38,309 nt of DNA from Candidatus Woesearchaeota archaeon (GCA_964600865.1 CAZRJP010000004.1:1-38309), one strand, 5' to 3'; shown: positions 14,601 to 32,675, counted from the stretch's first letter. The notes: generated from the letters alone by a model not told the origin. Translations and numbers: made by a program.

Positions 14601-14976
14601 CAGCACCTCTTTGAATGTCAAAGTCACCTATATCCAAGTTTTCATATGCCTCCTCTATTTCTTTTATCATTTCTTTAGGCATTTTAGAGTCTTTTATTAA
14701 AGCACGGATATTTTTTGTTATTTTATTTAATTTAGAAGTATCTTCATAATTTATATTTTCTAGTAATTCTTCTATTTTTTCTTTTATTCCTGCTTTTTCA
14801 ATGAAATAATCATATGCTTGCGCAGTAACCACAAATCCAGGTGGAACAGGGATTCCTAAATTGTATATTTCTGCAAGATTCGCTCCTTTTCCTCCAGCTA
14901 CATTACCTGAATCTTTATCTAAATCATTAAACCATCTAATGAATTTTTCTGCATGTTTTTCCTCTTTTTGTATCAT
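11668..14976 (-). CDS. ppsA: Phosphoenolpyruvate synthase (pyruvate, water dikinase) with a ~340-aa low-complexity repetitive C-terminal extension
   Basis: GGKGANLAE ATP-grasp N-terminus. Swivel-domain phosphohistidine motif TDEGGLTAHAAIVSREMGIPCIVG. PEP-utiliser TIM-barrel motifs GFHGIRY, ISFGTNDLTQY and SICGQA. The catalytic part ends near nt 12700. Confidence 0.9.
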   Translation of the reverse strand: MIQKEEKHAEKFIRWFNDLDKDSGNVAGGKGANLAEIYNLGIPVPPGFVVTAQAYDYFIEKAGIKEKIEELLENINYEDTSKLNKITKNIRALIKDSKMPKEMIKEIEEAYENLDIGDFDIQRGAALDILNNASEPNFVAVRSSATTEDLANASFAGQQETFLNIKGKKDLIDSIKKCFASLFTSRATYYREKKGFKHIESHVAVIVQKMIDAKKSGVIFSKDPSYKNDNTIIEAVWGLGEGIVSGRVTPDKYVISKEMEITDEKIANKKSAITRDSSGKRSIVKLSENKAKQKVLKNHEIKRLAEIGKKLEEHYEKPQDIEFAIENNEISIVQTRPITTMENRISEGGQKEIKGDVVLNGLAASPGVASGKIKIVDNLEDLSKISKGDVLVTKMTNPDMVVTMQKSSAIVTDEGGLTAHAAIVSREMGIPCIVGTGNATTKLKENEVITVDGNTGNIFKGKTAETKKKQVESVKTDTKTKIKVIVDLPSFAERAAKSGIKKVGLTRIEGIIAESEKHPQYFLKKDKTKDYENIIYKGVNDIAEHFEELWVRTSDVRSDEFKNLEGAPKTNEANPMLGFHGIRYSLNNPKIFEAELNALKRISNNGKTIGILLPQVISVKEVQETKKRLKEIGFEDAKLGIMIETPASVQIIKDLVQEGIDFISFGTNDLTQYILAVDRGNERVQNLYNEMHPAILYQLGFVIRVCKRAGVETSICGQAGSKKEMVKFLVEKGIDSISVNADVAQEISEYVKKIEQSIVENTDKEPRHYEKVKEKENQEKNQKQENNNDEDSNDQNIVKNVDEAVKDIEKEKQEYEQGSKTQTRENNHKENQEENQKQENNNDEDNNKQWDVPQNKNNKQSLEENNNNDDDDEDSNDQNIVKNVDEAVKDIEKEKQEYEQGSKTQTRENNHKEKQEENQKQENTSNEDNKKQGNDKIKNDFKNDFKKEAEKQAQKDKDIVKDVNEAVKDIEKEKQDYEQESKTQTRENNHKEKQEENQKQENNSNKDMPIPMKFNPGMKQYQPDTEKVKNAIKELEGENNENNDNQKDNQQNKKENIKNPLKKLSENIPPNIKKIKENLVDSDNKKDGNKQEDNKDDILDIF
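11971..12650 (-). repeat. Three large tandem DNA repeats (plus a partial fourth) inside the ppsA 3' extension
   Basis: Units at 12457-12610 and 12208-12360 differ by about one base over ~153 nt (period 249). A shorter, more diverged unit lies at 11971-12086. The units encode NVDEAVKDIEKEKQEYEQGSKTQTRENNHKE.QEENQKQEN. Confidence 0.9.
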
Positions 14977-20898: not shown

Positions 20899-21279
20899 TT
20901 AAATTATTTTTGCTTCTTTGAGGTTTTTGAAATGGTTGTCGCAAGTTAGAATTTTTGCAGAAATGGATTTTGCAGAAGCCATAATGAATGTATCTGCTAA
21001 ACTTATTGATTTTATTTTTTCTTTTAATTGTGCGTGTAATAATCCTGCTTCCTTTGCTATTTCAGGAGTTATTTCAAGGATATTTACATTTGAAGTAAGA
21101 ATATTATAAGCTATTTTTACATTTTTATTTCTTCTTTTTACTTTACTGATGACTTCTCCAATATTTACAGAAAGAGTGTATATTTTATTATTGCTTTTTA
21201 ATAATTTATTGACTTTTTCACCTGTTTCACTTCCTTCAAGATATTCTATCCAAGCAGAAGAATCAATTAGATATTTCAT
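20899..21279 (-). CDS. vapC: PIN-domain ribonuclease toxin VapC
   Basis: MKYLIDSSAWIEYL (first acidic residue), ...SLADTFIMASA..., ...ILTCDNHF. 126 aa. It starts 1 nt after the upstream antitoxin stop. Confidence 0.85.
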   Translation of the reverse strand: MKYLIDSSAWIEYLEGSETGEKVNKLLKSNNKIYTLSVNIGEVISKVKRRNKNVKIAYNILTSNVNILEITPEIAKEAGLLHAQLKEKIKSISLADTFIMASAKSISAKILTCDNHFKNLKEAKII

Positions 21280-21280
21280 T

Positions 21281-21481
21281 TTAGTTTCTATCTCTCATTC
21301 TATCTTTTTTAGTGAATTTGCCTACACCTTTTAGAATCCCAAATCCTTCTATCTTTTTTTTCTTTACTTGTATTTCAACAATTTCTTCTTCTCTAAGTTG
21401 CTCTAATTCAACAATTTCTTTTGGAATAGTCACTACTAAAGAACCCCCTACTTTCCTGGTTGTCGCAAGTGTTTGTGTCAT
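21281..21481 (-). CDS. vapB: AbrB/SpoVT-type antitoxin VapB
   Basis: RKVGGSLVVTIPKEIVELEQLREEEIVEIQV is a swapped-hairpin AbrB signature. 66 aa. Tightly coupled to vapC. Confidence 0.8.
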   Translation of the reverse strand: MTQTLATTRKVGGSLVVTIPKEIVELEQLREEEIVEIQVKKKKIEGFGILKGVGKFTKKDRMRDRN

Positions 21482-21601: not shown

Positions 21602-23317
21602 ATGAAGATTTTAACATTACATACAGATTACATTAAGTTTAAACCATTGAAAAAGGCATTAAAGAAAATAAAGGAACTTTCAAAAAAAGATAAGAAAGAG
21701 CAACATGTAAAAGATGCTTTAGTAGTTATGACTGCTGTTGAAAAGATTGATGAAGATGTTAAGAAAGTTGTTTCTAAATTGATTTCTGAGGTTAAAGATA
21801 TTGCTTCTCAAGTAAAAACAAAGAATATTGTTTTATATCCTTATGCTCATTTGTCAAGTAATTTAGCTAAACCTAATATTGCAGAAAAAGTTTTGAAAAA
21901 AGCAGAAGAAGGATTGAAAAAAACATTTAATGTTGCAAGAGCACCTTTTGGATATTATAAGGAATTTGAATTAAAGGTTAAAGGACATCCTTTATCTGAA
22001 TTAAGTAGAGAGATTGTTTTAAAGGGAGATGGTAAAAGCATTAAAGAGGGAGAAGAGTATGATTCTAAACAATTATTAAATGAAATCTCTAAATCTAAGT
22101 TAGATACATCTAAGTTAAAAGGTAATGACCATAGAATTATTGGAAAGCAAATGGATTTGTTTAGTTTTAATGATGTTGCTCCAGGAATGGTTTTTTGGCA
22201 TAATAATGGCCTTGTATTATATAATGAATTAGTTAAATTTATGAGAGAACTTTTACAAAAAAATGATTATGAAGAGATTAAAACCCCACAGATATTAGAT
22301 AAAAGACTTTGGCAAATTTCAGGTCATTGGGAAAAGTATAATGAGAATATTTTTTTAACAAAATATGATGAAAGAGATTTTGCAGTTAAACCAATGAATT
22401 GTCCTGGAGGAATGTTGGTTTATAAGAATGGTTCTAAGAGTTATAGAGATTTGCCTTTGAGAACAGGAGAATTTGGTGTTGTTCATAGGCAGGAATTATC
22501 TGGAGTTTTGGGAGGATTGTTTAGAGTAATACAATTTACACAGGATGATGCACATGTATTTTGTACTGAAAAACAAGTAGAACAAGAGATTGAAAAAATA
22601 ATGGATTTAATGTCTTATGTTTATGATAAACTTGGATTGAAATTAGATCATGTTGAACTTTCTACAAGGCCTAAGAAAAGAATAGGAGATGATAAAATAT
22701 GGGATTTATCTGAGAATACTTTAAAGAAAGTTTTAGAGAAAAAGAAAATTAAGTTTAAGATTAATAAAGGAGATGGAGCTTTTTATGGTCCTAAGATTGA
22801 TTATCATCTTAAAGACTCATTAAAGAGGACATGGCAATTAGGGACTATACAACTTGATTTTGCAATGCCTGAGAGATTTGATTTAGAATATACCACTAAA
22901 GATAATAAAAAGAAAAGACCAATTATGTTACATAGAGTTATTTATGGTTCTTTAGAGAGGTTTATTGGAATATTAATTGAACATACTAATGGAAGATTTC
23001 CTACATGGTTATCTCCAATCCAAGTAAGGGTTTTGAATTTTACTGATAGAAATACTAAGACAGCTAAAGATGTTTTAGAGAAGATTAAAAAAGAGATGCC
23101 TAATGTAAGGATTGATTCTGATTTTTCAAGTAGTACTATGGGTGCAAAAGTAAAGTCAGCAGAAATTATGAGGGTACCATATATTTTAACAATAGGAGAT
23201 AAAGAGGAAAAAGCAGGAACAATTGCTGTTAGAGAAAAAGGAAGCAGTAAAATTAGTTCAATGAGTGTTGATGATTTTATTTCTAAGTTAAAAACAGAGA
23301 TTGAAGAGAAAAAATAG
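21602..23317 (+). CDS. thrS: Threonyl-tRNA synthetase with archaeal N-terminal editing domain
   Basis: N-terminal ~140 aa archaeal editing domain (MKILTLHTDYIKFKP...). Class II core motifs DHRIIGKQMDLF, VKPMNCPGGMLVY, FRVIQFTQDDAHVFC and GAFYGPKID. C-terminal anticodon-binding domain. Confidence 0.92.
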   Translation: MKILTLHTDYIKFKPLKKALKKIKELSKKDKKEQHVKDALVVMTAVEKIDEDVKKVVSKLISEVKDIASQVKTKNIVLYPYAHLSSNLAKPNIAEKVLKKAEEGLKKTFNVARAPFGYYKEFELKVKGHPLSELSREIVLKGDGKSIKEGEEYDSKQLLNEISKSKLDTSKLKGNDHRIIGKQMDLFSFNDVAPGMVFWHNNGLVLYNELVKFMRELLQKNDYEEIKTPQILDKRLWQISGHWEKYNENIFLTKYDERDFAVKPMNCPGGMLVYKNGSKSYRDLPLRTGEFGVVHRQELSGVLGGLFRVIQFTQDDAHVFCTEKQVEQEIEKIMDLMSYVYDKLGLKLDHVELSTRPKKRIGDDKIWDLSENTLKKVLEKKKIKFKINKGDGAFYGPKIDYHLKDSLKRTWQLGTIQLDFAMPERFDLEYTTKDNKKKRPIMLHRVIYGSLERFIGILIEHTNGRFPTWLSPIQVRVLNFTDRNTKTAKDVLEKIKKEMPNVRIDSDFSSSTMGAKVKSAEIMRVPYILTIGDKEEKAGTIAVREKGSSKISSMSVDDFISKLKTEIEEKK

Positions 23318-23365
23318 AATTTTATAAATAATAATTCTTATAAAGTCCTTTAATGTATTTTTGAT

Positions 23366-23887
23366 ATGAACTTTAAATTTTATGTAGAAAAGCTTAATGA
23401 TTCAGAAGAATACAAAAAATTCCTTAAAGAAAATAAAGGGGCTTTTCCAGTATCTGCTTTTTTTATAATAGATAAAAAGAGTGGTGACAATAAGCAACAT
23501 TTTGATTATTTTATTCCTTCTCAAGAAAAAATGTTTAGTTTTAAGTTAGAAGACGAGTGTAAAAAGGTTCCAGTTGAGGTTGCAGATAAATCAAAATTAA
23601 AAAAAGAGAACGAAATTTCCTTGGATAGATTTGATTTTGATTTTGGTAAAATAGAAAAGATGATTGAAGCAGAGATGTTTGATAAAAAAATTAAAAAAGA
23701 TATTCATAAATTGTTATTATCTATACAGAATAAGGATGAAAAACAATTTATTTTGGCAACAGTGTTTATTTCCAATATGGGGCTTTTGAAAGTAACAATA
23801 GATTTAGAGAATATGAAGATACTAGATTTTGAGAAAAAGAGTTTATTAGATATGTTTAAGATTAAGAAAAATAAAAAAAGTAAGTAA
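23366..23887 (+). CDS. Hypothetical protein
   Basis: Clean 173-aa ORF with no motif I recognise. Confidence 0.55.
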   Translation: MNFKFYVEKLNDSEEYKKFLKENKGAFPVSAFFIIDKKSGDNKQHFDYFIPSQEKMFSFKLEDECKKVPVEVADKSKLKKENEISLDRFDFDFGKIEKMIEAEMFDKKIKKDIHKLLLSIQNKDEKQFILATVFISNMGLLKVTIDLENMKILDFEKKSLLDMFKIKKNKKSK

Positions 23888-23899
23888 TTTTAGTTTTTG
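23887..23899 (+). repeat. Cassette-boundary core, copy 0 (ATTTTAGTTTTTG)
   Basis: Begins at the last base of the stop codon of 23366..23887 (TAA 23885-23887). Identical 13-mer at 24487-24499. Confidence 0.75.
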
Positions 23900-23961
23900 A
23901 AGATAGGAGTATTTATATAGCTAATTATATATCAGTATATAACTAATATATAATAAATAAA

Positions 23962-24189
23962 ATGGCAAAAGAATCAACAATTTTGATAAAAAAAGAATTA
24001 ATTGAAAAATTAAAAAGTGCAAAAGATTATCCTAGAGAGACATATAATGATGTTCTTGAAAAGATGATAAAACTATATCTTTCTACAAAAAAGAAAAATC
24101 AATATGACGAATTTTTGCATAAAGTTCAACAGCCAAAAATGAAAGAGTTATGGGATAATAAAGAAGATGAGGCGTGGGAAAATGCATGA
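23962..24189 (+). CDS. Antitoxin of the archaeal small VapB-like/RHH-like family (L..LK...ETYNDV motif)
   Basis: ILIKKELIEKLKSAKDYPRETYNDVLEKMIKLY. Paralogous N-terminal modules occur in 24793..25050 and 31201..31431. Overlaps the downstream toxin (ATGCATGA). Confidence 0.7.
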   Translation: MAKESTILIKKELIEKLKSAKDYPRETYNDVLEKMIKLYLSTKKKNQYDEFLHKVQQPKMKELWDNKEDEAWENA

Positions 24190-24484
24190 TTTTGGAGATG
24201 TAATCTTGGCTGAAGTTCAATTTACAGATACTTTTGAAATAAAAACCAGACCGGCTCTTGTTTTATTTGAGGAGCAAGGAAATGTGGTTGTTGTTGGAAT
24301 AACAAGTAATCTTAATATGAAAGGAGTGCAATTAACTAAAAAAGAAGGGGCAGTAAAAGAGAGTGTAATAAAACTTAATTATATTTTTACTATTTCTGAT
24401 AAAATGATCAAGAAAAATTTGTTTAAACTTTCTAAAAAGAAAAAGAAAATTGTTAAAAAAGAGTTATTGGATAAGATTAAATAA
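24182..24484 (+). CDS. PemK/MazF-like toxin (divergent)
   Basis: FGDVILAEVQFTDTFEIKTRPALVLFEEQGNVVVVGITSN fits the PemK pattern (gdi..v.f......k.RPalVl........v..iTs). ATG at 24182 is preferred; the ORF track starts at 24167. Confidence 0.7.
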   Translation: MHDFGDVILAEVQFTDTFEIKTRPALVLFEEQGNVVVVGITSNLNMKGVQLTKKEGAVKESVIKLNYIFTISDKMIKKNLFKLSKKKKKIVKKELLDKIK

Positions 24485-24486
24485 TT

Positions 24487-24540
24487 ATTTTAGTTTTTGG
24501 ACAATAAAATTAATCATTAATTTTGAGTTGTGTTTTTGAG
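24487..24540 (+). repeat. Cassette-boundary core copy 1 plus a pseudo-copy of the methyltransferase 3' end
   Basis: ATTTTAGTTTTTGG followed by ACAATAAAATTAATCATTAATTTTGAGTTGTGTTTTTGAG. Compare 25073-25132, TATTTAAGTTTTTGG TTTCTTAATAATAAAATTAATCATTAATTCTGAGTTGTGTTTTGA. Confidence 0.8.
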
Positions 24541-24541
24541 G

Positions 24542-24796
24542 TTATTTATAGATATTTCTTCTAGGTCCTATATCTAATATTTGGATGATTAATTTAGATT
24601 GAATTATATTATATAGTACTCTATATTTTCCAATTCTTAATTTCCATAATCCTTTTAAGTTTCCTATAAGTGGGCATCCTAATTTAGGGTTGTTTTTTAG
24701 TTTAGTTATTTTTTTTAAAATTCTTTTTTGTTTTTGTTTGTCTAATTTTTTTAGAAATCTTTTAGCTGGTTTTTTAAAAATAATTTCATATTTCAT
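24542..24796 (-). CDS. relE: RelE/ParE-family toxin
   Basis: ...KKITKLKNNPKLGCPLIGNLKGLWKLRIGKYRVLYNIIQSKLIIQILDIGPRRNIYK is a classic RelE/StbE pattern. 4-nt overlap with the upstream antitoxin. Confidence 0.85.
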   Translation of the reverse strand: MKYEIIFKKPAKRFLKKLDKQKQKRILKKITKLKNNPKLGCPLIGNLKGLWKLRIGKYRVLYNIIQSKLIIQILDIGPRRNIYK

Positions 24797-25050
24797 AGAT
24801 TTAACTCTTTTTTCACTTCTTCAAGGCTTGTTCCTCCTTTTTCTTGAAGTGATTGTTTTAAATCCCTCATTGATTTAGGATCAGATAGAACTTCTATTGT
24901 TGCAATTAAACTTTCTCTATTTGCATTTTGAGGAGAAATATCAGATATCAATCTTTTTATTATATCATTGTACGTTTCCCTATGATGTATTTTTAATGAA
25001 TCTAATTTTGCTTTTGTTTTATTGTCTAATTGAATTGTTGTTATAGCCAT
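24793..25050 (-). CDS. Antitoxin for RelE (same N-terminal module family as 23962..24189)
   Basis: TTIQLDNKTKAKLDSLKIHHRETYNDIIKRLISD plus the RelB-like tail ...LSDPKSMRDLKQSLQEKGGTSLEEVKKEL. Confidence 0.75.
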   Translation of the reverse strand: MAITTIQLDNKTKAKLDSLKIHHRETYNDIIKRLISDISPQNANRESLIATIEVLSDPKSMRDLKQSLQEKGGTSLEEVKKELNL

Positions 25051-25072
25051 AGTTAACTATAGAATGCCATAG

Positions 25073-25132
25073 TATTTAAGTTTTTGGTTTCTTAATAATA
25101 AAATTAATCATTAATTCTGAGTTGTGTTTTGA
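25073..25132 (+). repeat. Cassette-boundary core copy 2 plus the genuine methyltransferase 3' end
   Basis: TATTTAAGTTTTTGG overlaps the stop codon (25076-25078) of the methyltransferase gene. Confidence 0.8.
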
Positions 25133-25690
25133 TGCAATTTTAAAACCTGTATCTTTGAATAATTTATGTATTTCTTTTTCAGTAAAGAGATAATAGTATC
25201 TTTTTCCTTTGTCTGTCCATCCAATATATCTTTCTTGAGATTCATATTTTTTGAATCTTTTTGAGTCTTTGTTCCATACACCAATAAGTGCCTTTGCTCC
25301 TGGTTTTAAAACTCTATAAAATTCCTCTATTATTTTTTTATGTTCTCTTGGTGGAGTACAATGTATTGAAGATATTGAAATTCCTGCATCAAAAAAATTA
25401 TCTTTAAAGGGTAAATTAGAAATTCTTCCAACATAAAATTCTGCATCAATATTTTTTTCTTTAGCTTTTTTCTTTGCCAGTTTTAACATTTTTTTACTAA
25501 AATCAATAAGATATATTTTTCCATCTTTTATCTTGGTTAAATGTCTACCACTACCAGACCCTAAATCAATAACATCCCCTTTTTGATTTTTTAAGAATTT
25601 TTTTGAGAGTTTTGAAGGTATTTTTTTATATTCGTGCCATTCAGGGGCTATTTTATCCCATACTTCTTGTTGTGATTGTATTCTTTCCAT
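25076..25690 (-). CDS. Class I SAM-dependent methyltransferase, Trm9/ALKBH8-methyltransferase-like
   Basis: Motif I VIDLGSGSGRH. GISISSIHCTPPREHKKIIEEFYRVLKPGAKALIGVWNKDSK parallels the Trm9/ALKBH8 block ISIAVIHH....RR......E..R.L.PGGKALIYVWA. Confidence 0.7.
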   Translation of the reverse strand: MERIQSQQEVWDKIAPEWHEYKKIPSKLSKKFLKNQKGDVIDLGSGSGRHLTKIKDGKIYLIDFSKKMLKLAKKKAKEKNIDAEFYVGRISNLPFKDNFFDAGISISSIHCTPPREHKKIIEEFYRVLKPGAKALIGVWNKDSKRFKKYESQERYIGWTDKGKRYYYLFTEKEIHKLFKDTGFKIASKHNSELMINFIIKKPKT

Positions 25691-25752
25691 TTTTTCCCTA
25701 CATATTAATAAAAGTTTGTTAAACTTAAAAAGCCTGGGATTATAGATAATAC

Positions 25753-27153
25753 ATGAAAAAACCTAAGAAAGGAGAAGTTAGAAAACCAACTAAAACAATA
25801 TCAGGAATTACTCCAGTAGCAGTTATGCTTCCTCCTAGAAAGTGTGAACATGGTTGTTGTGTTTATTGTCCTAATTTAGATGTTCCTCAATCTTATACTC
25901 CAAAAAGTCCGGTGGTATTAAGAGCTTCAAAAGTTGGTTTTGATAGTTTTAAACAAGTTAAAGGTAGAATAAATGCATTTAAGGCGATGAATCATCCCAC
26001 AGAAAAAATAGAGTTAATTATTATGGGAGGAACATTTTTAGAGTATTCTAAGGAGTTTCAATATAAATTTGTTAAGGGTTGCTATGATGCTATGAATGGT
26101 AAAAAATCTAAGAATTTAGAAGAAGCAAAAAAGTTTAATGAAAGTGCAAAACATAGATGTGTTGCCTTATGTATTGAAACAAGGCCAGATAAATGTATGC
26201 AGTTTATTGATAGAATGAGGGAATTTGGATGTACTAGGGTTGAATTAGGTGTTCAGATTATTGATGATGAGATTTATAAAAAGGTTAAGAGAGGTCATAC
26301 TGTAAAAGATGTTATAAATACTACTAGAGAATTGAAAAATGCTGGATTTAAAGTAGGATATCATATTATGCCTGGATTGCCAGGAAGTAATTTTAAGAAA
26401 GATTTGAAATTATTTAAGAAGATTTTTTCTGATGAGAGATTTAAACCAGACCAACTTAAATTATATCCTTGTCAGGTTATGCCTAATAGTGAATTAGAAG
26501 AGTGGTATTTTAATGGAAAGTATAAACCATATCCTAAAGAAAAAATTCAAAAATTATTACTTAAAATGCTTAAGAATGTTCCAAGATATTGTAGAGTTAT
26601 GAGGGTTATGAGAGAAATACCTCCTGAGTTTATGACCGCTGGAACTAAGAGAATTGATTTAAGAAATGAAATTGAAAAGGAATTAAGAGAAAAAAATGCT
26701 AATCTTAAAGAGATTAGATATAGAGAAATAGGATTCGCTTTAAGGCATAAGAAAAAAGAAGATATTAATCAGGATTTAAGGTTAAAAATTACAAAGTATG
26801 ATTCTTCTAATGGAAGAGAGTATTTTTTAGAAATTGTTAATAAAAATAATATTTTATTTGGTTTGTTGAGATTAAGAATTTTTGGAGAAGGAGATGATAG
26901 GAGTGCTATTATTCGTGAAGTGCATGTTTATGGAAAGGTATTAAATATAGGAAAAAAATCTGAAAAAGAGATAATTGCACAGCATAAAGGTTTAGGAAAG
27001 CAGTTAATTGGTAAGGCAGAGAGTATTATGAAGGAAGAAAAAATAGGTAAATTAAAAGTAATTTCTGGTGTTGGAGTTAGAGAGTATTATAAGAAACTTG
27101 GATATAAGCTTGAAAGTGAAGAAAAAGGAGAGTATATGGTTAAAAGCATATAA
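25753..27153 (+). CDS. elp3: Elp3-type radical SAM + GNAT tRNA U34 modification enzyme
   Basis: RKPTKTISGITPVAVMLPPRKCEHGCCVYCP (radical-SAM cluster Cys). ALCIETRPD, VELGVQ. C-terminal GNAT region ...REVHVYGKV...QHKGLGKQLI... Confidence 0.88.
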   Translation: MKKPKKGEVRKPTKTISGITPVAVMLPPRKCEHGCCVYCPNLDVPQSYTPKSPVVLRASKVGFDSFKQVKGRINAFKAMNHPTEKIELIIMGGTFLEYSKEFQYKFVKGCYDAMNGKKSKNLEEAKKFNESAKHRCVALCIETRPDKCMQFIDRMREFGCTRVELGVQIIDDEIYKKVKRGHTVKDVINTTRELKNAGFKVGYHIMPGLPGSNFKKDLKLFKKIFSDERFKPDQLKLYPCQVMPNSELEEWYFNGKYKPYPKEKIQKLLLKMLKNVPRYCRVMRVMREIPPEFMTAGTKRIDLRNEIEKELREKNANLKEIRYREIGFALRHKKKEDINQDLRLKITKYDSSNGREYFLEIVNKNNILFGLLRLRIFGEGDDRSAIIREVHVYGKVLNIGKKSEKEIIAQHKGLGKQLIGKAESIMKEEKIGKLKVISGVGVREYYKKLGYKLESEEKGEYMVKSI

Positions 27154-27190
27154 TTGAATATATATTTTTAATTATAATTAAAAAGTAAGA

Positions 27191-27211
27191 GTTTCTATTG
27201 AGAATAGAAAC
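27191..27211 (+). terminator. Perfect 9-bp-stem hairpin downstream of elp3
   Basis: GTTTCTATT-GAG-AATAGAAAC, 38 nt after the elp3 stop. Its function (terminator or recombination site) is not established. Confidence 0.35.
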
Positions 27212-27244
27212 TTCTTCCATTAGTAATAGAAAGATTTGTATGTT

Positions 27245-27406
27245 TTATTTTATATGTAGTCTATTGTGGGACAAATAGGAGGATGTTTCGTTTCCCTTTA
27301 AATTACTTATCATTTCTCTTGTTGTTGCTGTTTTTAATTTATAATTATTATAGAGGTTGAATATATTTGTTAGGATGTGCCCTATTTCAGTCAGGGCACT
27401 TACCAT
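27245..27406 (-). CDS. Boundary module A: short (53 aa) HTH-like ORF
   Basis: MVSALTEIGHILTNIFNLYNNYKLKTATTREMISNLKGNETSSYLSHNRLHIK. Nt 27257-27349 are ~98% identical to 29591-29684 (one substitution, one 1-nt indel). A 7-bp-stem hairpin GTGCCCT-N9-AGGGCAC lies at 27377-27399. Confidence 0.45.
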   Translation of the reverse strand: MVSALTEIGHILTNIFNLYNNYKLKTATTREMISNLKGNETSSYLSHNRLHIK

Positions 27407-27464
27407 TCTAGCGAGAATTGAGTAAGACCAATAATTTTTTAATCTTGCTTTTCTTTTAACTAAT

Positions 27465-27674
27465 ATGAAAATAGTGTTTACCAAACATGCTGAAAATAGA
27501 CTAGAGAAAAGAAAAATTACAAAAAGAGAAGTTAGAGATTCAATTAAGCAGGCTGATAAGACCGAGAAGAAAGATAATAAATATTATATTAGAAAGAATA
27601 TTGGAAGAGGTAAAATAGAGATTGTTTACGAAAAGGATAAATATATAAAAGTTATTACAGTTTATTGGATATAG
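27465..27674 (+). CDS. DUF4258-like small toxin
   Basis: KIVFTKHAENRLEKRKITKREVRDSIKQ...GRGKIEIVYEKDKYIKVITVYW. Paired with a DUF2283 gene. Confidence 0.7.
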   Translation: MKIVFTKHAENRLEKRKITKREVRDSIKQADKTEKKDNKYYIRKNIGRGKIEIVYEKDKYIKVITVYWI

Positions 27675-27732
27675 ATAACGTAAACTAAATTTTCAATAAT
27701 TAAAATTATAAAAAATATAAAGTCCAGGTAAA

Positions 27733-27942
27733 ATGAAAATAGAATTTGATAAAGAAGCTGATGCACTGTATATAGAATTTTCTAGTAAAGAATTTGCTAA
27801 AAATAAAAAGATAGATGACTCGACAATTATTGACTTGGATAAAGAAGGAAACATAATTGGCATTGAGCTATTAAATGTGAGTGAAAAACTGCCTAAAGAA
27901 GCTCTTTCTGATATTAATGTTAAAAACCTGATGACTGCTTGA
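27733..27942 (+). CDS. DUF2283-family protein (putative antitoxin partner)
   Basis: MKIEFDKEADALYIEF...STIIDLDKEGNIIGIELLNVSE is the canonical DUF2283 pattern. Confidence 0.78.
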   Translation: MKIEFDKEADALYIEFSSKEFAKNKKIDDSTIIDLDKEGNIIGIELLNVSEKLPKEALSDINVKNLMTA

Positions 27943-28137
27943 GTAAAGTATATTGCAACAAAACAACAAGTGCGCTCTTTTCATACAGACAGAAAGTACT
28001 CAGTTTAGAAAAATCTTTGATTAATCTATATCTAAAACTCTCTCATAATTATTATAACTCTGATTAGCGACTTCTTCTCTTTCTCTATCTTTAAACCTTC
28101 GCTATCTTAATGCCATTTTCTTGTTTTTTATGCTATT

Positions 28138-28302
28138 TTAAATCAGCCCTCTTATTATTTCCTCAGTTCCAGAAACCAATAAATGTTTGACTTTATCTTT
28201 TTTTTCAAACTTTTTTGTGTTTAATTTATTCAGCATTTCAACTATTGTTTTTCCTTTTAATTTATAATTATATTTAGTATGTGGGTTAGTAATTGTGATA
28301 AT
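28138..28302 (-). pseudogene. Boundary module B: diverged paralogue of modules A, C and D without a start codon
   Basis: Open frame IITITNPHTKYNYKLKGKTIVEMLNKLNTKKFEKKDKVKHLLVSGTEEIIRGLI*. An upstream in-frame TAA lies at 28303-28305. There is no ATG, GTG or TTG before EML. Confidence 0.4.
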
Positions 28303-28315
28303 TTATATTGCTATT

Positions 28316-28427
28316 TGTTATGATATATAACATAAATGTTATTATTTAGGTTTTTTGTTATACTATAAAAACCATTATATATGTTATAAAACATAACAGA
28401 AAACCTTAAAAACTATGTTTTTGTTAT
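28316..28427. promoter_or_regulatory. TGTTAT/ATAACA hexamer array upstream of the HEPN gene
   Basis: TGTTAT at 28316, 28337, 28356, 28382 and 28422. ATAACA at 28327 and 28393. Includes the palindromes GTTATGATATATAAC and TGTTATAAAACATAACA. Confidence 0.4.
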
Positions 28428-28455
28428 TTAATATGGATAGAGAAGAGTATAAAAA

Positions 28456-28824
28456 ATGACAGAAGAGAATAAAGATAAAAATCAGGAAATGAAAGAGATT
28501 TTAAGAGAGAATGTTAATGAATATTACAGAAACGGTAGTAATGCCCACAAGAGAGGAGAATACAATAGTTCTGTTACATTATTTTTCAAAGCTATATCTG
28601 GCTTGTGTGACTTATTCTTGTTAGATAAAGAGGGTAAAATTCCTAGTAGCCATTTAGAAAGGTTTAGAATATTAGAATCTAGTTATCCGAAGATATATAG
28701 GATCATAGATAAGGACTTTCCTTTTTACCAAAGTAGTTACTATTCAAAATTAAATAAAGAAACTTCCGAGTTGTTGAAAGAAGATGCCCAAAGACTATCT
28801 AAAATTATTGGAATCGAAATGTAA
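28456..28824 (+). CDS. HEPN-domain protein
   Basis: NAHKRGEYNSSVTLFFKAISGLCDLFLLDKEGKIPSSHLERFRIL fits the HEPN helix pattern (A...g.y..a...ay.A.e.alKa.l...g......H). Adjacent to a nucleotidyltransferase gene. Confidence 0.55.
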   Translation: MTEENKDKNQEMKEILRENVNEYYRNGSNAHKRGEYNSSVTLFFKAISGLCDLFLLDKEGKIPSSHLERFRILESSYPKIYRIIDKDFPFYQSSYYSKLNKETSELLKEDAQRLSKIIGIEM

Positions 28825-29362
28825 GAAATTTGCAGAACAAAATAACTTGTTTGATGTTGTTTTATACGGCTCATCAGTTAAAGGAAAAGAAAAACCTAGA
28901 GATATCGACCTTCTATTGATATTTGAAAATGAAAAACTAAAAAAGAGGGCAGAGAAAGGTCAGGAATTGAAAGAAGGATTGAAGAATAAAAAAATATCTA
29001 AAATTGATGTCAAGACAATAAACTTGAAGGAGATATTTGAAAAAGAGTTTTTAGCAAGGCAGGGTGTTTTGAGTGAAGGATATAGTTTGATTGATGATGA
29101 TTATTTCTCAAGGAAAATAGGATTTAAGGGAAATATGTTATTTAGTTATCGACTTAGTAAATTAAATCATAATGAAAAGACTAAGTTTACCTATGCTTTA
29201 AGTGGAAGGAATAGTGAAGGCATGTTAAATAAGGTAGGGGGAGAATCAGTAGGAAGAGGGGCAGTATTAATCCCTATAAAAAATAGCATTAAATTTAAGA
29301 ATTTCCTAGATAAATGGAATGTTGATTACGAACAAAAAACTTTACTAGTTTCCATAATATGA
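28784..29362 (+). CDS. Minimal nucleotidyltransferase (MNT-like) with a ~90-aa C-terminal extension
   Basis: FDVVLYGSSVKGKEKPRDIDLLLIF contains GS-x9-DxD. Overlaps the HEPN gene by 41 nt. Confidence 0.75.
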   Translation: MPKDYLKLLESKCKKFAEQNNLFDVVLYGSSVKGKEKPRDIDLLLIFENEKLKKRAEKGQELKEGLKNKKISKIDVKTINLKEIFEKEFLARQGVLSEGYSLIDDDYFSRKIGFKGNMLFSYRLSKLNHNEKTKFTYALSGRNSEGMLNKVGGESVGRGAVLIPIKNSIKFKNFLDKWNVDYEQKTLLVSII

Positions 29363-29544
29363 TATCTAAAAAAAGAATAAAGGAAGAAGCTGGAAAGAAG
29401 GGTAAAAAGATTGGAAAGAAATCCATAAAAGAGATTGAAAATATATTAAGACAGGAGCTTGGAGATATTATAAGAATGGCTAGCGATAGAGCAGATTTTT
29501 CAGGAAGAAAAACTATTAAGAAAGAAGATATAGATTATGATTAA
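29359..29544 (+). CDS. Short archaeal histone-fold protein (HMf-like, 61 aa)
   Basis: RIKEEAGKKGKKIGKKSIKEIENILRQELGDIIRMASDRADFSGRKTIKKEDIDY. Compare HMfB ...RIIKDAGAERVSDDA...[30 protein letters not shown]. ATGA overlap with the MNT gene. Confidence 0.65.
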   Translation: MISKKRIKEEAGKKGKKIGKKSIKEIENILRQELGDIIRMASDRADFSGRKTIKKEDIDYD

Positions 29545-29563
29545 TTTCATACTCCTCTCAATG

Positions 29564-29712
29564 CTAAAATAGTAAGCACCCTGACCGAGCTAGTCTATTG
29601 TGGGACAAATAGGAGGATGTTTCGTTTTCCCTTTAAATTACTTATCATTTCTCTTTTTGTTGCTGTTTTTAATTTATAATTATTGTCGAGGTTTAGCATA
29701 TGGGTTAGGTGA
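29564..29712 (-). pseudogene. Boundary module C: frameshifted copy of module A
   Basis: GHLTHMLNLDNNYKLKTATKREMISNLKG, then an extra T (CGTTTTCCC versus CGTTTCCC in A) shifts the frame. In the repaired frame it would end ...SHNRLARSGCLLF* at 29564. Confidence 0.5.
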
Positions 29713-29748
29713 CCACAAAATAAAAAGATATTTAAATCGTGGTCACCT
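29707..29748. promoter_or_regulatory. Perfect 10-bp-stem hairpin AGGTGACCAC-N22-GTGGTCACCT upstream of the Fic gene
   Basis: Arms at 29707-29716 and 29739-29748. Each arm contains a GGTSACC palindrome. Confidence 0.6.
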
Positions 29749-29760
29749 ATTATTTTTAGT

Positions 29761-30685
29761 ATGTTTATAGAAAAAAGAAAAACCAAGACAGGAATAAAAT
29801 ACTATCTGACCCATTCTTATAGAAAGAAAGGCAAGGTAAAGAAAATTAGGAAGTATTTAGGCAAAGACCTCTCTAAAAAAGAATTAAAAAAAGAGAGGGA
29901 GGAAGCCAAAAAAGAATTAAAAAAAGAGATCAAGCAGATTAGAATAGAGATATTTAATTTTACTCTTAAATCTGAAGAGGTAGATAAACTAAATAATCTT
30001 TCTGAAGTCGAAATCAAACATTTGGATAAATCAGACTGGAAAAAGTTTGAAGAGGATTTTGTTTATAATACAAATGCTATTGAAGGCTCGACAGTTAGAT
30101 TAGATGAAGTTAAAACTATTCTCCAGAAAAAACCAAAAACTACAGACCCAGAAGAAAAAGAAACTATTAATGTTTTAGAAGCCATAGAATTTATTAAAAA
30201 TAATCAAGACAGAGATTTGTCCTTAGGATTAATAAAAAAACTTCATCAAATTTGCTTTAAAGGGTCTAAGTCTTTCGCAGGTCGACTAAGAGATAAAGAA
30301 GTTGTTATCAGAAATGCAAAAGGAGAAATAATCCACAGAGGAGTTCCTTCAGAGGAAGTTAAAGATTATTTGAAAGAAATGATTGAGTGGTATAAAGAAA
30401 ATAAAGATAAGTTTAAGCTAATTGTTTTAGCTGCTTTAATCCATAACCAATTTGAACATATCCATCCTTTTGAAGATGGTAATGGTAGAGTTGGGAGGCT
30501 ATTATTAAATTTTGTATTGTTGAAGAATGATTATCCCCCGATTAATATATCTTGAAGATAGGAAAGAATATTATGACTGTTTAAAACAGTATTCTGATAA
30601 ACACAAGGTAGAACCAACTGTAAGATTTTTGGTTAAGCAGTATAAAAAGACATTAAAAAAGGAGACCACAGATTCAGGAAAATAG
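29761..30685 (+). pseudogene. Fic-domain protein (class with N-terminal inhibitory TxxxEG motif), interrupted by a frameshift at ~30548-30555
   Basis: Fic motif HIHPFEDGNGRVGRLL (30457-30498). Inhibitory-helix-like TNAIEG. The ORF stops at TGA 30553-30555, but the +1 frame continues YLEDRKEYYDCLKQYSDKHKVEPTVRFLVKQYKKTLKKETTDSGK* to 30685, which is the expected Fic C-terminus. Confidence 0.75.
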
Positions 30686-30700
30686 ATTTTTGTGGTCACC
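30661..30700. promoter_or_regulatory. Second GGWGACCACA-N20-TGTGGTCACC hairpin at the 3' end of the Fic gene
   Basis: 9 of 10 positions pair. GTGGTCACCTATT (30692-30704) repeats 29739-29751 exactly. Confidence 0.6.
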
Positions 30701-30852
30701 TATTCAGCGCCCTGATTGATTAACCTATCTTTATGGGTCAAATCAGGAGATGTTTCCTTGCCTTTTAATTTCTTTAGCATCTCTCTTGTTGTGGCTCTTT
30801 TTAATTTATAAATATTGTCAGAGTTAGTGGATATGGTATAAAATTTTTTCAA
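30700..30852 (-). CDS. Boundary module D: HTH-like ORF (50 aa, TTG start) immediately downstream of mazF
   Basis: LKKFYTISTNSDNIYKLKRATTREMLKKLKGKETSPDLTHKDRLINQGAE*. It differs from module A largely by synonymous or conservative changes (GCA/GCC, GAA/GAG, GGA/GGC, TCC/TCT, CAC/CAT). Confidence 0.4.
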   Translation of the reverse strand: MKKFYTISTNSDNIYKLKRATTREMLKKLKGKETSPDLTHKDRLINQGAE

Positions 30853-30859
30853 TAAAATG

Positions 30860-31213
30860 TTATCCTAAATCTAAACTAATTTTAATAGCCAAATCTATTT
30901 CTTTCATAATCTCATTATCTAGGGGAGAAATTTTTTTAATAATTCTTTTCTTATCTATGACCTTTATTTGATTAAGTAAAACTGTTGAATCTTTATCAAG
31001 TTTTGAATCTTTTTTGTCAAGAAACACATTTGTTGGGTATTCTTTACTAAATTTTTTTGAAGTAATTGGGGCAATTATGGTGGTTGGGCTATATTTATTT
31101 CCTAAATCATTTTGTATAATAACTGAAGGTCTTACTCCTCCTTGTTCACTACCTTTTATAGGTTCTAGATTTACAAGTACAATATCCCCTCTTTTTATTT
31201 TTACCATTTCCAA
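30860..31213 (-). CDS. mazF: MazF/PemK-family endoribonuclease toxin
   Basis: IKRGDIVLVNLEPIKGSEQGGVRPSVIIQNDLGNKYSPTTIIAPITS is the canonical MazF signature. Confidence 0.88.
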   Translation of the reverse strand: MEMVKIKRGDIVLVNLEPIKGSEQGGVRPSVIIQNDLGNKYSPTTIIAPITSKKFSKEYPTNVFLDKKDSKLDKDSTVLLNQIKVIDKKRIIKKISPLDNEIMKEIDLAIKISLDLG

Positions 31214-31431
31214 TCAAAATCCTCTTCTATAGCTTCGAACTCTTTGGTAATTTTAATGCTTTTTTCTGCCATTTTTTTATAGCCTTCTATTATTAACTCT
31301 TTTTTTTGCCTTCTTTGCTTCTCTAATTGGTCCATCATTTTAACTATTGTTTCTTCATATGTTTCTTTTTTAGATTTTAATCTGTCTAAGGCATTCTTTA
31401 CATTTTTGTTAAGTTGAATTGTGGTAACCAT
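31201..31431 (-). CDS. Antitoxin for MazF (same N-terminal module family as 23962..24189 and 24793..25050)
   Basis: TTIQLNKNVKNALDRLKSKKETYEETIVKMMDQL. 13-nt overlap with mazF. Confidence 0.72.
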   Translation of the reverse strand: MVTTIQLNKNVKNALDRLKSKKETYEETIVKMMDQLEKQRRQKKELIIEGYKKMAEKSIKITKEFEAIEEDFDWKW

Positions 31432-32250: not shown

Positions 32251-32287
32251 TTTTTACCTCCTTTCATTTTTTAAACTTTTTTTTTGA

Positions 32288-32416
32288 GTTAAGTTCTGGT
32301 TTGTAGTGTATCTTTTTGAAAGATACGTTTATGTTAAGTTCTGGTTTGTAGTGTATCTTTTTGAAAGATACGTTTATGTTAAGTTCTGGTTTGTAGTGTA
32401 TCTTTTTGAAAGATAC
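32288..32416. repeat. Tandem direct repeat, 45-bp unit x 2.9, each unit carrying an 8-bp-stem palindrome
   Basis: The unit is GTTAAGTTCTGGTTTGTAGTGTATCTTTTTGAAAGATACGTTTAT, at 32288-32332, 32333-32377 and 32378-32416 (truncated). The copies are identical. The palindrome is GTATCTTT-TTG-AAAGATAC. Confidence 0.95.
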
Positions 32417-32546: not shown

Positions 32547-32675
32547 TGAGCCTGCACGGATTTGAACCGTGGGCCCCTGCCTCTCTTAGAGCTAGTTAGT
32601 TCCAAAGAGGATTAATCCTTATTCGGATTAAACTCATATAAGAGCAGTGCTCTGACCAGGCTGAGCTACAGGCTC
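32547..32675 (-). tRNA. tRNA-Ile (anticodon UAU) with a 54-nt intron at the canonical 37/38 position
   Basis: Minus strand: GAGCCTG-TA-GCTC-AGCCTGGTCA-GAGC-A-CTGCT-CTTATA[54-nt intron]A-GGCAG-GGGCC-CACGG-TTCAAAT-CCGTG-CAGGCTC-A. Loop nts CTTA pair with intron TAAG (4-bp helix), flanked by the 3-nt bulges TA|T and AG|A, then inner helix GAG/CTC. This is a canonical bulge-helix-bulge. Confidence 0.8.

Follow-up and report, generated by a model that had tools for sequence, protein, structure and literature searches.

The described systems closest to the locus reported here are integrative elements that target the 3' ends of genes, integron cassettes, integrase-less elements that borrow a host recombinase, and recombination anchored in short homology. 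Elements of the first kind use a tyrosine recombinase and include the pNOB8-type and SSV-type elements of archaea as well as bacterial genomic islands. Homology-facilitated illegitimate recombination and Campbell-type integration have been described for naturally transformable bacteria; we know of no demonstration of homology-facilitated illegitimate recombination in DPANN archaea. The genomes of these archaea are tiny and tightly packed, with almost no intergenic DNA, and their acquisition of accessory genes is little understood; diversity-generating retroelements (DGRs) are common in them. Archaeal integrons have been reported in the Nanoarchaeota (DPANN) (Ghaly et al., 2022, PMC9668308).

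The locus lies in a Candidatus Woesearchaeota archaeon (GCA_964600865.1 CAZRJP010000004.1:1-38309), and the window hereafter means this whole stretch of 38,309 nt. The host is a tiny, Pacearchaeota-like DPANN archaeon, and its genome is very AT-rich (27% GC). Related loci or lineages used for comparison are designated by L-numbers. The conserved neighborhood is a syntenic block, ThrRS-p173 >< MT-ELP3. Threonyl-tRNA synthetase (ThrRS; 21602..23317, plus strand) was assigned by tblastn synteny across ∼60 related loci and by the Pfam domains of the L100 orthologue, and it forms one conserved flank. The p173 gene (23366..23887, plus strand) encodes a conserved protein of 173 amino acid residues without a Pfam match, whose orthologues (38-68% identity) adjoin MT in most loci compared. 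MT, the target and a housekeeping gene, encodes a class I SAM-dependent methyltransferase (25076..25690, minus strand; Pfam Methyltransf_25/11/31), and its ORF is intact; of 897 homologues detected, the best 120 share 60-80% identity with the query. The other conserved flank, supported by synteny, is an ELP3-like radical-SAM protein (25753..27153, plus strand), whose Radical_SAM and Radical_SAM_C domains were read on an identical Logan contig.

Two toxin-antitoxin (TA) operons, TA1 and TA2, lie between p173 and MT in convergent, i.e. opposite, orientations. TA1 (plus strand) consists of the antitoxin AT1 (23962..24189; 75 aa), with a weak DUF7557/VapB-antitoxin-like N-terminus (Pfam DUF7557, E=2.8e-5), and a PemK/MazF-like toxin (24167..24484; PemK_toxin, E=8e-9). 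The toxin gene is preceded by the overlapping antitoxin gene, as in type II TA operons of the PemK/MazF family. TA2 (minus strand) has the arrangement of a type II operon of the RelE/ParE family: the antitoxin AT2 (24793..25050; DUF7557, E=5.5e-11) is located upstream and overlaps by 4 nt the start of a RelE/ParE-family toxin (24542..24796; ParE_toxin, E=1e-13). At E<=1e-8, 91 homologues of AT2 were found (51-73% identical to the query); to our knowledge, the DUF7557 antitoxin family is uncharacterised. RelE orthologues were located downstream of MT in L038, L069, L071, L100 and L109. The region 25051..25087 (minus strand) probably acts as the TA2 promoter/operator, given a BRE/TATA-like CCAAAAACTTAAATA that overlaps the MT stop codon and CTATGG-N5-CTATAG repeats before the ATG. 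This junction (CAAAAAnTTTAAATACTATAG...) recurs in L038, L071, L100 and L109, and a variant form was found at non-MT sites.

The 3' end of MT is present twice, as direct repeats that enclose TA2. The left-hand repeat, A1 (25073..25134, minus strand), is the functional MT end (terminating in KHNSELMINFIIKKPKT and the stop codon). The right-hand repeat, A2 (24486..24540, minus strand), is a displaced, non-functional copy, and the insert between them (24541-25072) measures 0.53 kb. An ungapped alignment of 24488-24536 with 25082-25130 gave 88% identity across 49 nt; with a 7-nt gap, 24486-24540 aligned to 25073-25134 with a score of 68, which none of the shuffles reached (0/2000), and A2 scored 27 bits with a position weight matrix (PWM). 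A2 differs from A1 by a 7-nt deletion and three substitutions. On the minus strand, the displaced copy translates as PQKHNSKLMINFIVQKLK followed by a stop, and the end of the real MT as SKHNSELMINFIIKKPKT followed by a stop; the pseudo-stop of A2 (24485-24487) immediately adjoins the PemK stop codon (24482-24484). About 15 nt of A2 (CCAAAAACTaAAATA) correspond to the first, BRE/TATA-like part of the promoter of the RelE operon, so A2 is not purely MT coding sequence. An earlier reading of the window, made from the sequence only, had placed the relE/antitoxin module between direct repeats of the target 3' end; the alignment and the intact MT bear this out, and the positions given there for all three core/repeat sequences were confirmed.

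Short repeats are common at this base composition, and the similarity might be put down to chance or to faulty assembly or binning. This explanation is effectively refuted by the shuffling result, by an independent assembly (Logan contig SRR7048220) that is identical to window positions 22396-27286 with 0 mismatches, and by the same architecture in independent metagenomes and lineages; only the isolated 13-mer described below is marginal. A near-identical copy of a 3' coding end just downstream of its gene also recalls a DGR, in which the two copies would be the variable and the template repeat and the MT C-terminus the target. However, no reverse transcriptase was found in the window, the repeat is only ∼55 nt and spans a stop codon and promoter sequence, and the mismatches (G/A, A/G, T/A and the 7-nt indel) are not adenine-specific, with the A/G change in the wrong direction. 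Moreover, few parts of the MT protein are as well conserved as its C-terminus. The DGR reading is already contradicted, and we give it practically no credence. At the DNA level, only one other 30-nt segment of MT surpasses the A1 stretch in conservation (88 lineages), and A1 is the conserved stretch closest to the islet.

The sequence-only reading had also proposed a 13-15-nt core shared by both cassettes. The 13-mer ATTTTAGTTTTTG occurs exactly at 23887..23899 (plus strand), directly after the p173 stop codon, and at 24487-24499, with a one-mismatch copy at 25074-25086. It is not enriched in the window (16 matches with <=2 mismatches vs 13.2 +/- 4.0 expected), and the exact pair that brackets the PemK module had p ∼0.045 in local shuffles (91/2000). 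In L111, the spacer orthologous to 23887-23899 matches at 8 of 13 positions, and no flanking repeat was detected around the orthologous PemK module (716/2000 shuffles). The shared core found little support: its copy at 23887, marginal (p ∼0.05) and absent from the L111 orthologue, is probably a chance match or a T-rich sequence of the terminator type. No flanking repeats were found around the VapBC module at 20899-21481 (994/1000 shuffles), and a 4-copy repeat at 27257-30841, considered as a displaced gene end, had no homologue in any related locus and no Pfam match. For the MT gene of the window, a sliding-window comparison gave no clear switch of nearest relative that would mark a recombination breakpoint.

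The junction between MT and p173 is polymorphic among relatives. In L111, the block reads ELP3-MT-><-PemK-AT1-p173 and contains no TA2, so that the MT stop codon abuts that of PemK. Its proteins are, in this order, 78, 73, 78, 89 and 68% identical to those of the window, with AT1 (89%) and PemK (78%) in the same position, and TA2 is the only difference between the two blocks. L108, which has the closest MT (80%), likewise lacks TA2. By this comparison, the junction has long been occupied by the PemK module (TA1), and the TA2-less loci support a gain or loss of TA2 there. At 61 loci, p173 is located downstream of MT and convergent on it, at a distance of 2 nt to 3.4 kb. The junction is empty (<=40 nt; stop codons 2-40 nt apart) at 12 of these, and ∼50 unrelated small-ORF families, with no integrase, were found as cargo at the others. 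Both kinds of allele that the sequence-only reading had suggested looking for in relatives, empty sites and alternative cargo, are present.

Displaced MT ends also recur: 17 copies were found in ∼12 lineages, all on the MT strand and 57-594 nt downstream. A PWM scan of 1.17 M positions gave nothing above 14 bits beyond MT ends and displaced copies just downstream of them. A generic motif of terminators or intergenic DNA, which the earlier reading had raised as the case against itself, is contradicted by this distribution. The displaced ends flank four kinds of cargo, namely TA2, a 27-nt segment and two non-coding elements, X1 and X2. X1 is a structured element of ∼96 nt, and a covariance-model search of 0.6 Mb located it only directly after the MT stop codon, at four loci; X1 as a dispersed MITE was ruled out by this result. 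Tandem arrays (A-X1-A-X1) are present in L054 and L057. In X1 lineages, the MT end and a subsequent TCATCAT form an inverted repeat (ATGATGA/TCATCAT, ∼21 nt apart). The left boundary of the displaced copies lies within ∼3 nt of ATGATGAT for the 27-nt segment, X1, X2 and the short TA2 form. In L094, L026, L043 and L003, the displaced copy is consensus-like and the in-gene MT end is atypical, as would follow if the DNA that arrived had carried a gene end with it.

Several of these observations would be expected if the last ∼30 nt of MT were the attB of a recombinase (an integrase or Xer-like enzyme) encoded elsewhere, with integrase-less attP cassettes moved in trans into arrays of the form A-cargo-A. 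Direct repeats of a target 3' end beside an intact gene are the classic attL/attR anatomy, and the different cargo types, the boundary clustering at ATGATGAT, the tandem arrays, the inverted repeat in X1 lineages, the empty and alternative-cargo alleles and the foreign-looking in-gene ends beside ancestral-looking displaced ends all point the same way. In its widest form, this would be an undescribed cassette system of Pacearchaeota-like archaea, in which the almost invariant last ∼30 nt of MT (ATGATGATnAAyTTyATnG..stop) might serve as a reusable attachment site; we regard such a site as improbable. It is similarly doubtful that TA operons, the ∼96-nt X1 and the 27-nt mini-insert are units that are inserted, tandemly amplified and exchanged in trans.

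A trans-acting recombinase itself is an unlikely explanation in view of the following results. In a search that covered the 38-kb window of the host genome and the related loci, no integrase or transposase was detected in the tested window ORFs, and no integrase in ∼110 related loci or in any cargo; for the window, this agrees with the earlier reading. No integrase-family Pfam match that could represent an integron integrase (IntI), which in integrons has attI beside it, was obtained among the window ORFs tested. None of the viral contigs carried the MT-end motif or the AT2 antitoxin, and a viral or plasmid origin of an attP was dropped on this ground. Around the TA2-type operons that reside at four other genomic sites, no flanking repeat was detected (p = 0.2-0.9), which suggests that the cassette does not bring an att site with it; the repeat appears to belong to the site and not to the TA2 cassette, and the earlier view of the TA cassette as a site-specific mobile unit finds no support here. 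X1 was found nowhere else in the 0.6 Mb, as noted above. The repeats in the window have no significant secondary structure (they fold no better than shuffles), the copy in the window contains a 9+1+9 AT palindrome as its only inverted element, and they do not match a dif-like architecture (two ∼11-bp arms with a 6-8-bp spacer). The repeats are also variable in length and boundaries, measuring 23, 31, 43, 50 or 55 nt across loci, and they end just past the stop codon, where orthologous homology ends.

The footprint is not confined to MT. Among 793 genes, 15 downstream copies of a gene's own 3' end were found on the same strand, compared with 0 on the opposite strand. An APRT-like gene in L074 has a 43-nt copy of its 3' end beyond 848 nt of cargo, and in L015 p173 itself has a 50-nt copy beyond 392 nt of cargo. 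That unrelated genes with unrelated sequences bear the same footprint speaks more for a process driven by homology than for a dedicated recombinase that uses a single att site.

Other known machinery left no trace. No inverted-repeat pair of the transposon or casposon type was found at the ends of the 24541-25072 insert, and the duplications vary from 23 to 55 nt across loci, unlike a target-site duplication of fixed length. In Rfam searches, the window yielded tRNAs and nothing else; six related loci yielded tRNAs and three C/D-box snoRNA matches below threshold. A C/D-box sRNA, suggested by the ATGATGA motif, was rejected: its sole support was a sub-threshold snoRNA match (E=0.76), and D and C' boxes were lacking. 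A bulge-helix-bulge intron was rejected by inspection, the junctions being identical and not complementary.

It could also be that the repeat never moved. TA2 would then already have been resident when a local event (unequal crossover, tandem duplication plus deletion, or templated break repair) placed a second 55-nt MT-end/promoter junction beyond RelE. Both TA2 promoter sequence and the lineage-specific CC-AAAAAC junction are contained in A2, which on this reading dates the copying to a time when TA2 was already there. In the window and in L100, L005, L054 and L057, the A1 of the same locus is the nearest match to A2, and L054 and L057 contain clear recent tandem duplications of the MT end with its downstream sequence. 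The divergence of AT2 and RelE parallels that of MT (63-66% vs 63%; 90% vs 86%), so that much of the TA2 distribution could reflect vertical inheritance with many losses and not repeated insertion. Such a copy might persist as a putative terminator, in which the T-rich A2 separates the convergent PemK and RelE transcripts; T4-T5 runs are present on both of its strands just after the PemK and RelE stop codons, although the repeats are unstructured. However, two steps (duplication and deletion) or an undocumented repair pathway would be required, the atypical in-gene ends with consensus-like displaced ends are left unexplained, and so are the TA2-less L111 and L108, although these may be deletions. 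We consider a purely local copy rather improbable.

The reading that we prefer, and hold tentatively at a little below an even chance, is that the duplicated end was left by recombination anchored in homology, at a very conserved gene end on the border of a flexible islet. The anatomy, polymorphism and recurrence are observed; RadA-type homologous recombination or microhomology joining would be the enzymology. The convergent MT/p173 junction is a hot spot of the flexible islet in these compact Pacearchaeota-like genomes, and the 55-nt repeats around TA2 would result from recombination anchored in the last 30-55 nt of MT, which are extremely conserved. Two routes are conceivable. In the first, a DNA molecule that is circularised or longer than unit length, and that carries a gene end of its own, would be integrated by a single crossover (Campbell-type). 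In the second, homology-facilitated illegitimate recombination, an incoming complete MT end with cargo would be joined to the resident end by microhomology and the resident MT end would be pushed downstream. Neither a cassette-borne att site nor a dedicated integrase would be needed. The conserved MT end provides the anchor, and microhomology at the other joint was found in L038, L071, L100 and L109, in which RelE and the repeat meet at TATGA/TTAAT, inside the RelE stop codon. With two copies present, recombination between them could delete or exchange cargo, and TA operons would tend to persist between the repeats since addiction penalises cargo loss. The TA operons may thereby have a stabilising, addictive role in the islet.

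Some features sit less easily with homology-anchored recombination. One-step Campbell integration into an L111-like site fails to reproduce the right junction of the window, given the 15 nt of TA2 promoter sequence in the displaced copy, and the single-step model was not adopted. The window repeat would require one step more, for which a concatemeric donor, a scar from an earlier event or a duplication in situ could be considered. The right joint of the window (TAACCTC/AAAAACAC) shows no clear microhomology. Boundary clustering at ATGATGAT is unexpected from purely random microhomology joining; it may point to a preferred position of cleavage or crossover, or else to one ancient duplication that was reused for cassette exchange. 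In addition, homologous stretches of 23-55 nt are short for RadA-type recombination.

The locus offers a concrete route by which a DPANN genome may acquire genes: cargo is placed at the extreme 3' end of a conserved gene, the duplicated end saves that gene, and the two copies may allow later loss or exchange of the cargo. If the process is homology-driven, hypervariable TA or defence-like islets could persist between housekeeping genes without mobile-element machinery, and it would be explained why addictive TA operons remain. Should a trans-acting recombinase prove responsible, this would be a new archaeal cassette system, comparable in function to integrons but resting on a coding gene end in place of attC hairpins. 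In either case, a duplicated gene end would be a cheap signature for mapping recent insertions in thousands of metagenome-assembled genomes of DPANN archaea and the candidate phyla radiation (CPR).

Compared with known systems, the locus resembles the 3'-end-targeting integrative elements in its cargo between direct repeats of an intact host gene end, in the empty sites of relatives, in the imported-looking in-gene ends of several lineages and in tandem accumulation. It differs from them in having no integrase in or near the insert, a single TA operon of 0.53 kb, repeats of 23-55 nt, a TA family that is repeat-free elsewhere and unrelated genes with the same footprint. Small cassettes without a local integrase, TA cargo and arrays at one locus are shared with integron cassettes and CALINs (clusters of attC sites lacking an integrase), whose attC sites are imperfect inverted repeats of 55-141 nt at the 3' end of each cassette. 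However, the integron-like behaviour proposed from the sequence is not borne out: a regular-expression scan (not a covariance model) for RYYYAAC..GTTRRRY on both strands of the whole window gave 0 attC candidates, direct copies of a host coding end take the place of attC sites or folded hairpins, and the cassettes probably have their own promoters and lie in opposite orientations, whereas integron cassettes are mostly promoterless, lie in one orientation and use Pc. IMEX (CTX-phi, TLC and the gonococcal island) are likewise integrase-less, rely on a host recombinase in trans and form tandem arrays flanked by site copies; here, by contrast, the site is inside a coding 3' end and not at a chromosomal dif, and the window has no Xer gene. 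As with the TA modules that stabilise superintegrons and genomic islands, overlapping RelE/ParE and PemK/MazF operons occupy a hypervariable islet, in which their loss through recombination of the repeats would carry a penalty. Homology-facilitated illegitimate recombination, in its classical form, usually deletes and does not duplicate recipient sequence, and it does not predict the clustering at ATGATGAT. With this process and with Campbell-type integration, the locus nevertheless shares a short conserved anchor, the microhomology joint of four lineages, a duplication that stops with orthologous homology, variable repeat lengths and the use of any conserved gene end.

The window had a GC content of 27%, and its closest protein matches were found in Pacearchaeota, Woesearchaeota and Nanoarchaeota MAGs, which places it in a DPANN archaeon. 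The genes encoding ThrRS (21602-23317), a conserved protein of 173 amino acid residues without a Pfam match (p173, 23366-23887) and the first toxin–antitoxin module, TA1, with a DUF7557-like antitoxin (23962-24189) and a PemK/MazF toxin (24167-24484), are located on the plus strand. They are followed on the minus strand by the second module, TA2, with a RelE/ParE toxin (24542-24796) and a DUF7557 antitoxin (24793-25050), and by the gene of a class I SAM methyltransferase, MT (25076-25690); ELP3 (25753-27153) is again on the plus strand. The segment 22396-27286 was identical to a contig of an independent Logan assembly (SRR7048220), and the layout of the locus is therefore not a binning artefact. 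The N-terminal DUF7557 motif (..HRETYN../..KKETYE..) was present in all three antitoxins of the window that are paired with PemK/MazF or RelE/ParE toxins (23962-24189, 24793-25050 and 31201-31431), so that one antitoxin DNA-binding domain appears to have been joined to different toxin families.

The functional MT 3′ end (A1) was compared with its displaced copy beside the PemK stop codon (A2). The two were 88% identical over 49 ungapped nt (24488-24536 vs 25082-25130) and, when a 7-nt gap was allowed, homologous over 24486-24540 and 25073-25134. Since this alignment score was reached in 0 of 2000 shuffles, the duplication is real and non-random, and the attL/attR-like anatomy proposed from the sequence alone, with an MT-end copy on either side of TA2, was confirmed. 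Read on the minus strand, A2 gives KHNSKLMINFIVQKLK and A1, the real gene end, gives KHNSELMINFIIKKPKT, each followed by a stop codon; the predicted folding of A1 and A2 was no better than that of shuffled sequence. The further proposal that one core bounds both cassettes was not upheld. The 13-mer ATTTTAGTTTTTG occurs exactly at 23887, after p173, and at 24487, with a one-mismatch copy at 25074, and its matches with up to two mismatches were not enriched in the window (16 against 13.2 expected). The exact pair around TA1 was equalled in 91 of 2000 shuffles, and TA1 of the related locus L111 had no flanking repeat (716 of 2000 shuffles). Given this repeat-less TA1, whose spacer agrees with the window 13-mer at 8 of 13 positions, TA1 was concluded from sequence comparison to be a long-standing resident of the MT/p173 junction, and the "core" that bounds it is likely to match by chance or as a T-rich sequence of terminator type.

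In L111 (ELP3–MT→←PemK–antitoxin–p173), the MT stop codon immediately abuts the PemK stop codon, just as A2 does in the window. Identities to the window were 73% for MT, 78% for PemK, 89% for the TA1 antitoxin, 78% for ELP3 and 68% for p173, the last two of which fit one vertically inherited block; as this block is the same and TA2 is absent, L111 represents the window layout minus TA2. TA2 was also absent from L108, the locus with the closest MT (80%), which carries a MazF/DUF7557 module (1411-1985) directly downstream of MT. This module is homologous (68 and 63% amino acid identity) to the third TA module of the window (30860-31431), which lies at a different site, beside a tRNA, and TA modules thus fill different hot spots in close relatives. 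Beside ThrRS, a VapC/AbrB-type module without flanking repeats (20899-21481) showed 80-85% protein identity to one in the same position in L088 (6633-7212), while the neighbouring ThrRS and MT were just 69 and 62% identical, which suggests that this module was swapped between lineages at a fixed site.

When species-representative genomes and metagenomes were scanned with the MT protein as the query, about 95 informative loci were obtained, among which the order ELP3 ← MT → ← p173 ← ThrRS was widely conserved. The distance between the MT and p173 ends ranged from 2 nt to 3.4 kb in the 61 loci with p173 convergent on MT, and 12 of these were empty sites (≤40 nt). The non-empty junctions held about 50 unrelated small-ORF families, and no integrase was found among the larger cargo ORFs tested from related loci. 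With variable length and unrelated cargo between conserved convergent genes, the junction is a hypervariable islet, and the empty-site and alternative-cargo alleles anticipated by the sequence-only reading do exist in relatives.

A position weight matrix built from 72 distinct real MT ends was then applied to 1.17 million positions on both strands. Above 14 bits, only the real MT ends and 17 extra copies were recovered, all 17 on the MT strand and at distances of 57-594 nt past the real end; the repeat is thus no general-purpose terminator occurring behind many genes. Four kinds of cargo were flanked by these copies: the TA2 operon (the window, L038, L069/L071, L100 and, in decayed form, L109), a 27-nt segment (L003, L026, L043), a non-coding element of about 96 nt, X1 (L005, L054, L057, L094; tandem in L054 and L057), and a second non-coding element, X2 (L003, L068). 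The lineages concerned were scattered on the MT tree (single gene, neighbour-joining). At the DNA level, across 88 lineages, only one other 30-nt segment of MT is more conserved than the duplicated stretch, which lies nearest to the islet. In L094, L026, L043 and L003 the in-gene MT end was atypical and the displaced copy consensus-like, the pattern expected if incoming DNA had supplied a new gene end.

X1 (L005 6610-6705; L054 5688-5786 and 5815-5910; L057 5604-5702; L094 2654-2751) begins directly after the MT stop codon and always precedes the displaced copy. The element opens with TCATCATTT, which pairs with GAAATGATGA in the end of the MT coding sequence; another two hairpins contain compensatory changes, and RNA folding gave z = -4 to -5. 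X1 had no Rfam match and no occurrence elsewhere in 0.6 Mb.

The footprint was not confined to MT. When the 2 kb downstream of each of 793 genes in the retrieved loci were searched for a second copy of that gene's 3′ end, all 15 copies detected lay on the strand of the gene and none on the other. They include a 43-nt repeat with the stop codon of an APRT-like fusion protein gene around two ORFs (L074 930-1870; 848 nt) and a 50-nt repeat with the stop codon of p173 itself around a 96-aa ORF (L015 4500-5010); ends duplicated in this way were unrelated in sequence to the MT end. The cargo ORFs in these two repeats are small. The duplicated gene ends varied from 23 to 55 nt and stopped just past the stop codon, which is the limit of orthologous homology. 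Homologues of the DUF7557 antitoxin numbered 91 proteins (E ≤ 1e-8), and the antitoxin with RelE was found at four other genomic sites (after a thymidylate kinase gene, next to GatB, after a GTPase gene and near an arginase gene), none with significant flanking repeats; TA2 is therefore probably a cassette that brings no att site with it.

The best-supported reading, still a tentative one, is that recombination left its footprint at a conserved gene end next to a flexible islet. Incoming DNA with its own MT-end copy and cargo would recombine via the short conserved anchor, by a single crossover or homology-facilitated illegitimate joining, leaving the cargo between two gene-end copies; these would then permit cargo deletion or exchange, and TA addiction would bias which cargo survives. 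A site-specific recombinase acting in trans on the MT gene end as att, as the sequence-only reading had it, is favoured by the way the boundaries of the displaced copies cluster at ATGATGAT and by the tandem A-X1-A arrays, but it is unlikely, given that no recombinase was found, repeat lengths vary, TA2 copies at other sites are repeat-less and unrelated genes bear the same footprint.

The left junction is common to all MT-site TA2 operons: a BRE/TATA-like CAAAAAnTTTAAATA lies at the MT stop codon or overlaps it, and CTATAG repeats come next. At the right junction, TATGA is joined to TTAAT in L038, L071, L100 and L109, where fusion to the displaced ATGATTAAT copy creates the RelE stop codon; this is a microhomology joint and implies a single event common to the four. 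The window differs: its RelE ends in NIYK, and the start of A2 lies some 20 nt farther upstream in the MT sequence. A2 also includes the first 15 nt of the predicted TA2 promoter, with a window-specific junction, and was therefore copied from an MT-TA2 junction and not from a naive target. It is this promoter sequence within A2 that specifically suggests a purely local duplication with TA2 already resident, an explanation rated as unlikely overall. A one-step Campbell integration at a site like that of L111 failed to reproduce the right junction of the window, which calls for a further step, for instance a donor longer than unit length, a scar left earlier or duplication in situ. Since the divergence of the TA2 antitoxin and RelE tracks that of MT, part of the TA2 distribution may reflect vertical inheritance with repeated loss. 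Between L069 (2242-2493) and L071 (5897-6148), RelE was only 88% identical, with differences mostly in the C-terminal third, while MT and the antitoxin were 100% identical, which indicates a likely recombination breakpoint within the toxin gene.

Other repeats were observed in the window. A repeat of about 120-150 nt occurs in four copies that are 61-93% identical (27257-27374, 28214-28297, 29591-29709 and 30724-30841, within 27245-30852) and reads NNYKLKTATTREMISNLKG on the minus strand; neither a Pfam match nor a homologue in related loci was found for it, and its first copy is where the Logan contig breaks. It separates three small cassettes (DUF4258/DUF2283; a 122-aa ORF without a Pfam match, a nucleotidyltransferase and a histone-fold-like 61-aa ORF; Fic/DOC), is followed by the MazF/DUF7557 module beside the tRNA, and looks like a second, candidate repeat-bounded cassette array. 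At 32268-32416, between the gene of a DUF5684 membrane protein and a tRNA with an intron (32547-32675), a 45-nt unit (GTTAAGTTCTGGTTTGTAGTGTATCTTTTTGAAAGATAC) is present in three tandem copies. Giant surface proteins are typical of DPANN archaea, and two ORFs resemble them, one of 2921 aa rich in internal repeats (40-8805) and one of 1102 aa (11668-14976) with tandem repeats of about 240 nt (11937-12620).

As the sequence-only reading had stated, no integrase or transposase was detected by Pfam among the window ORFs tested, nor was a reverse transcriptase. Rfam matches were limited to tRNAs in the window and to tRNAs and three sub-threshold snoRNA matches in six related loci, and neither the MT-end motif nor the antitoxin was found on any viral contig. 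The kind of insertion is already known, but its variant here, which regenerates the gene end without a visible integrase at a hot spot recurrently used in DPANN archaea, is new. Archaeal integrons have been described, Nanoarchaeota included, mostly as integrase-less clusters of attC sites with many TA cassettes (PMC9668308). The suggested integron-like mechanism with an integrase in trans is hypothetical, and more parsimonious explanations exist. Archaeal integrons are defined by their attC sites, and no canonical attC pair was found in the window.
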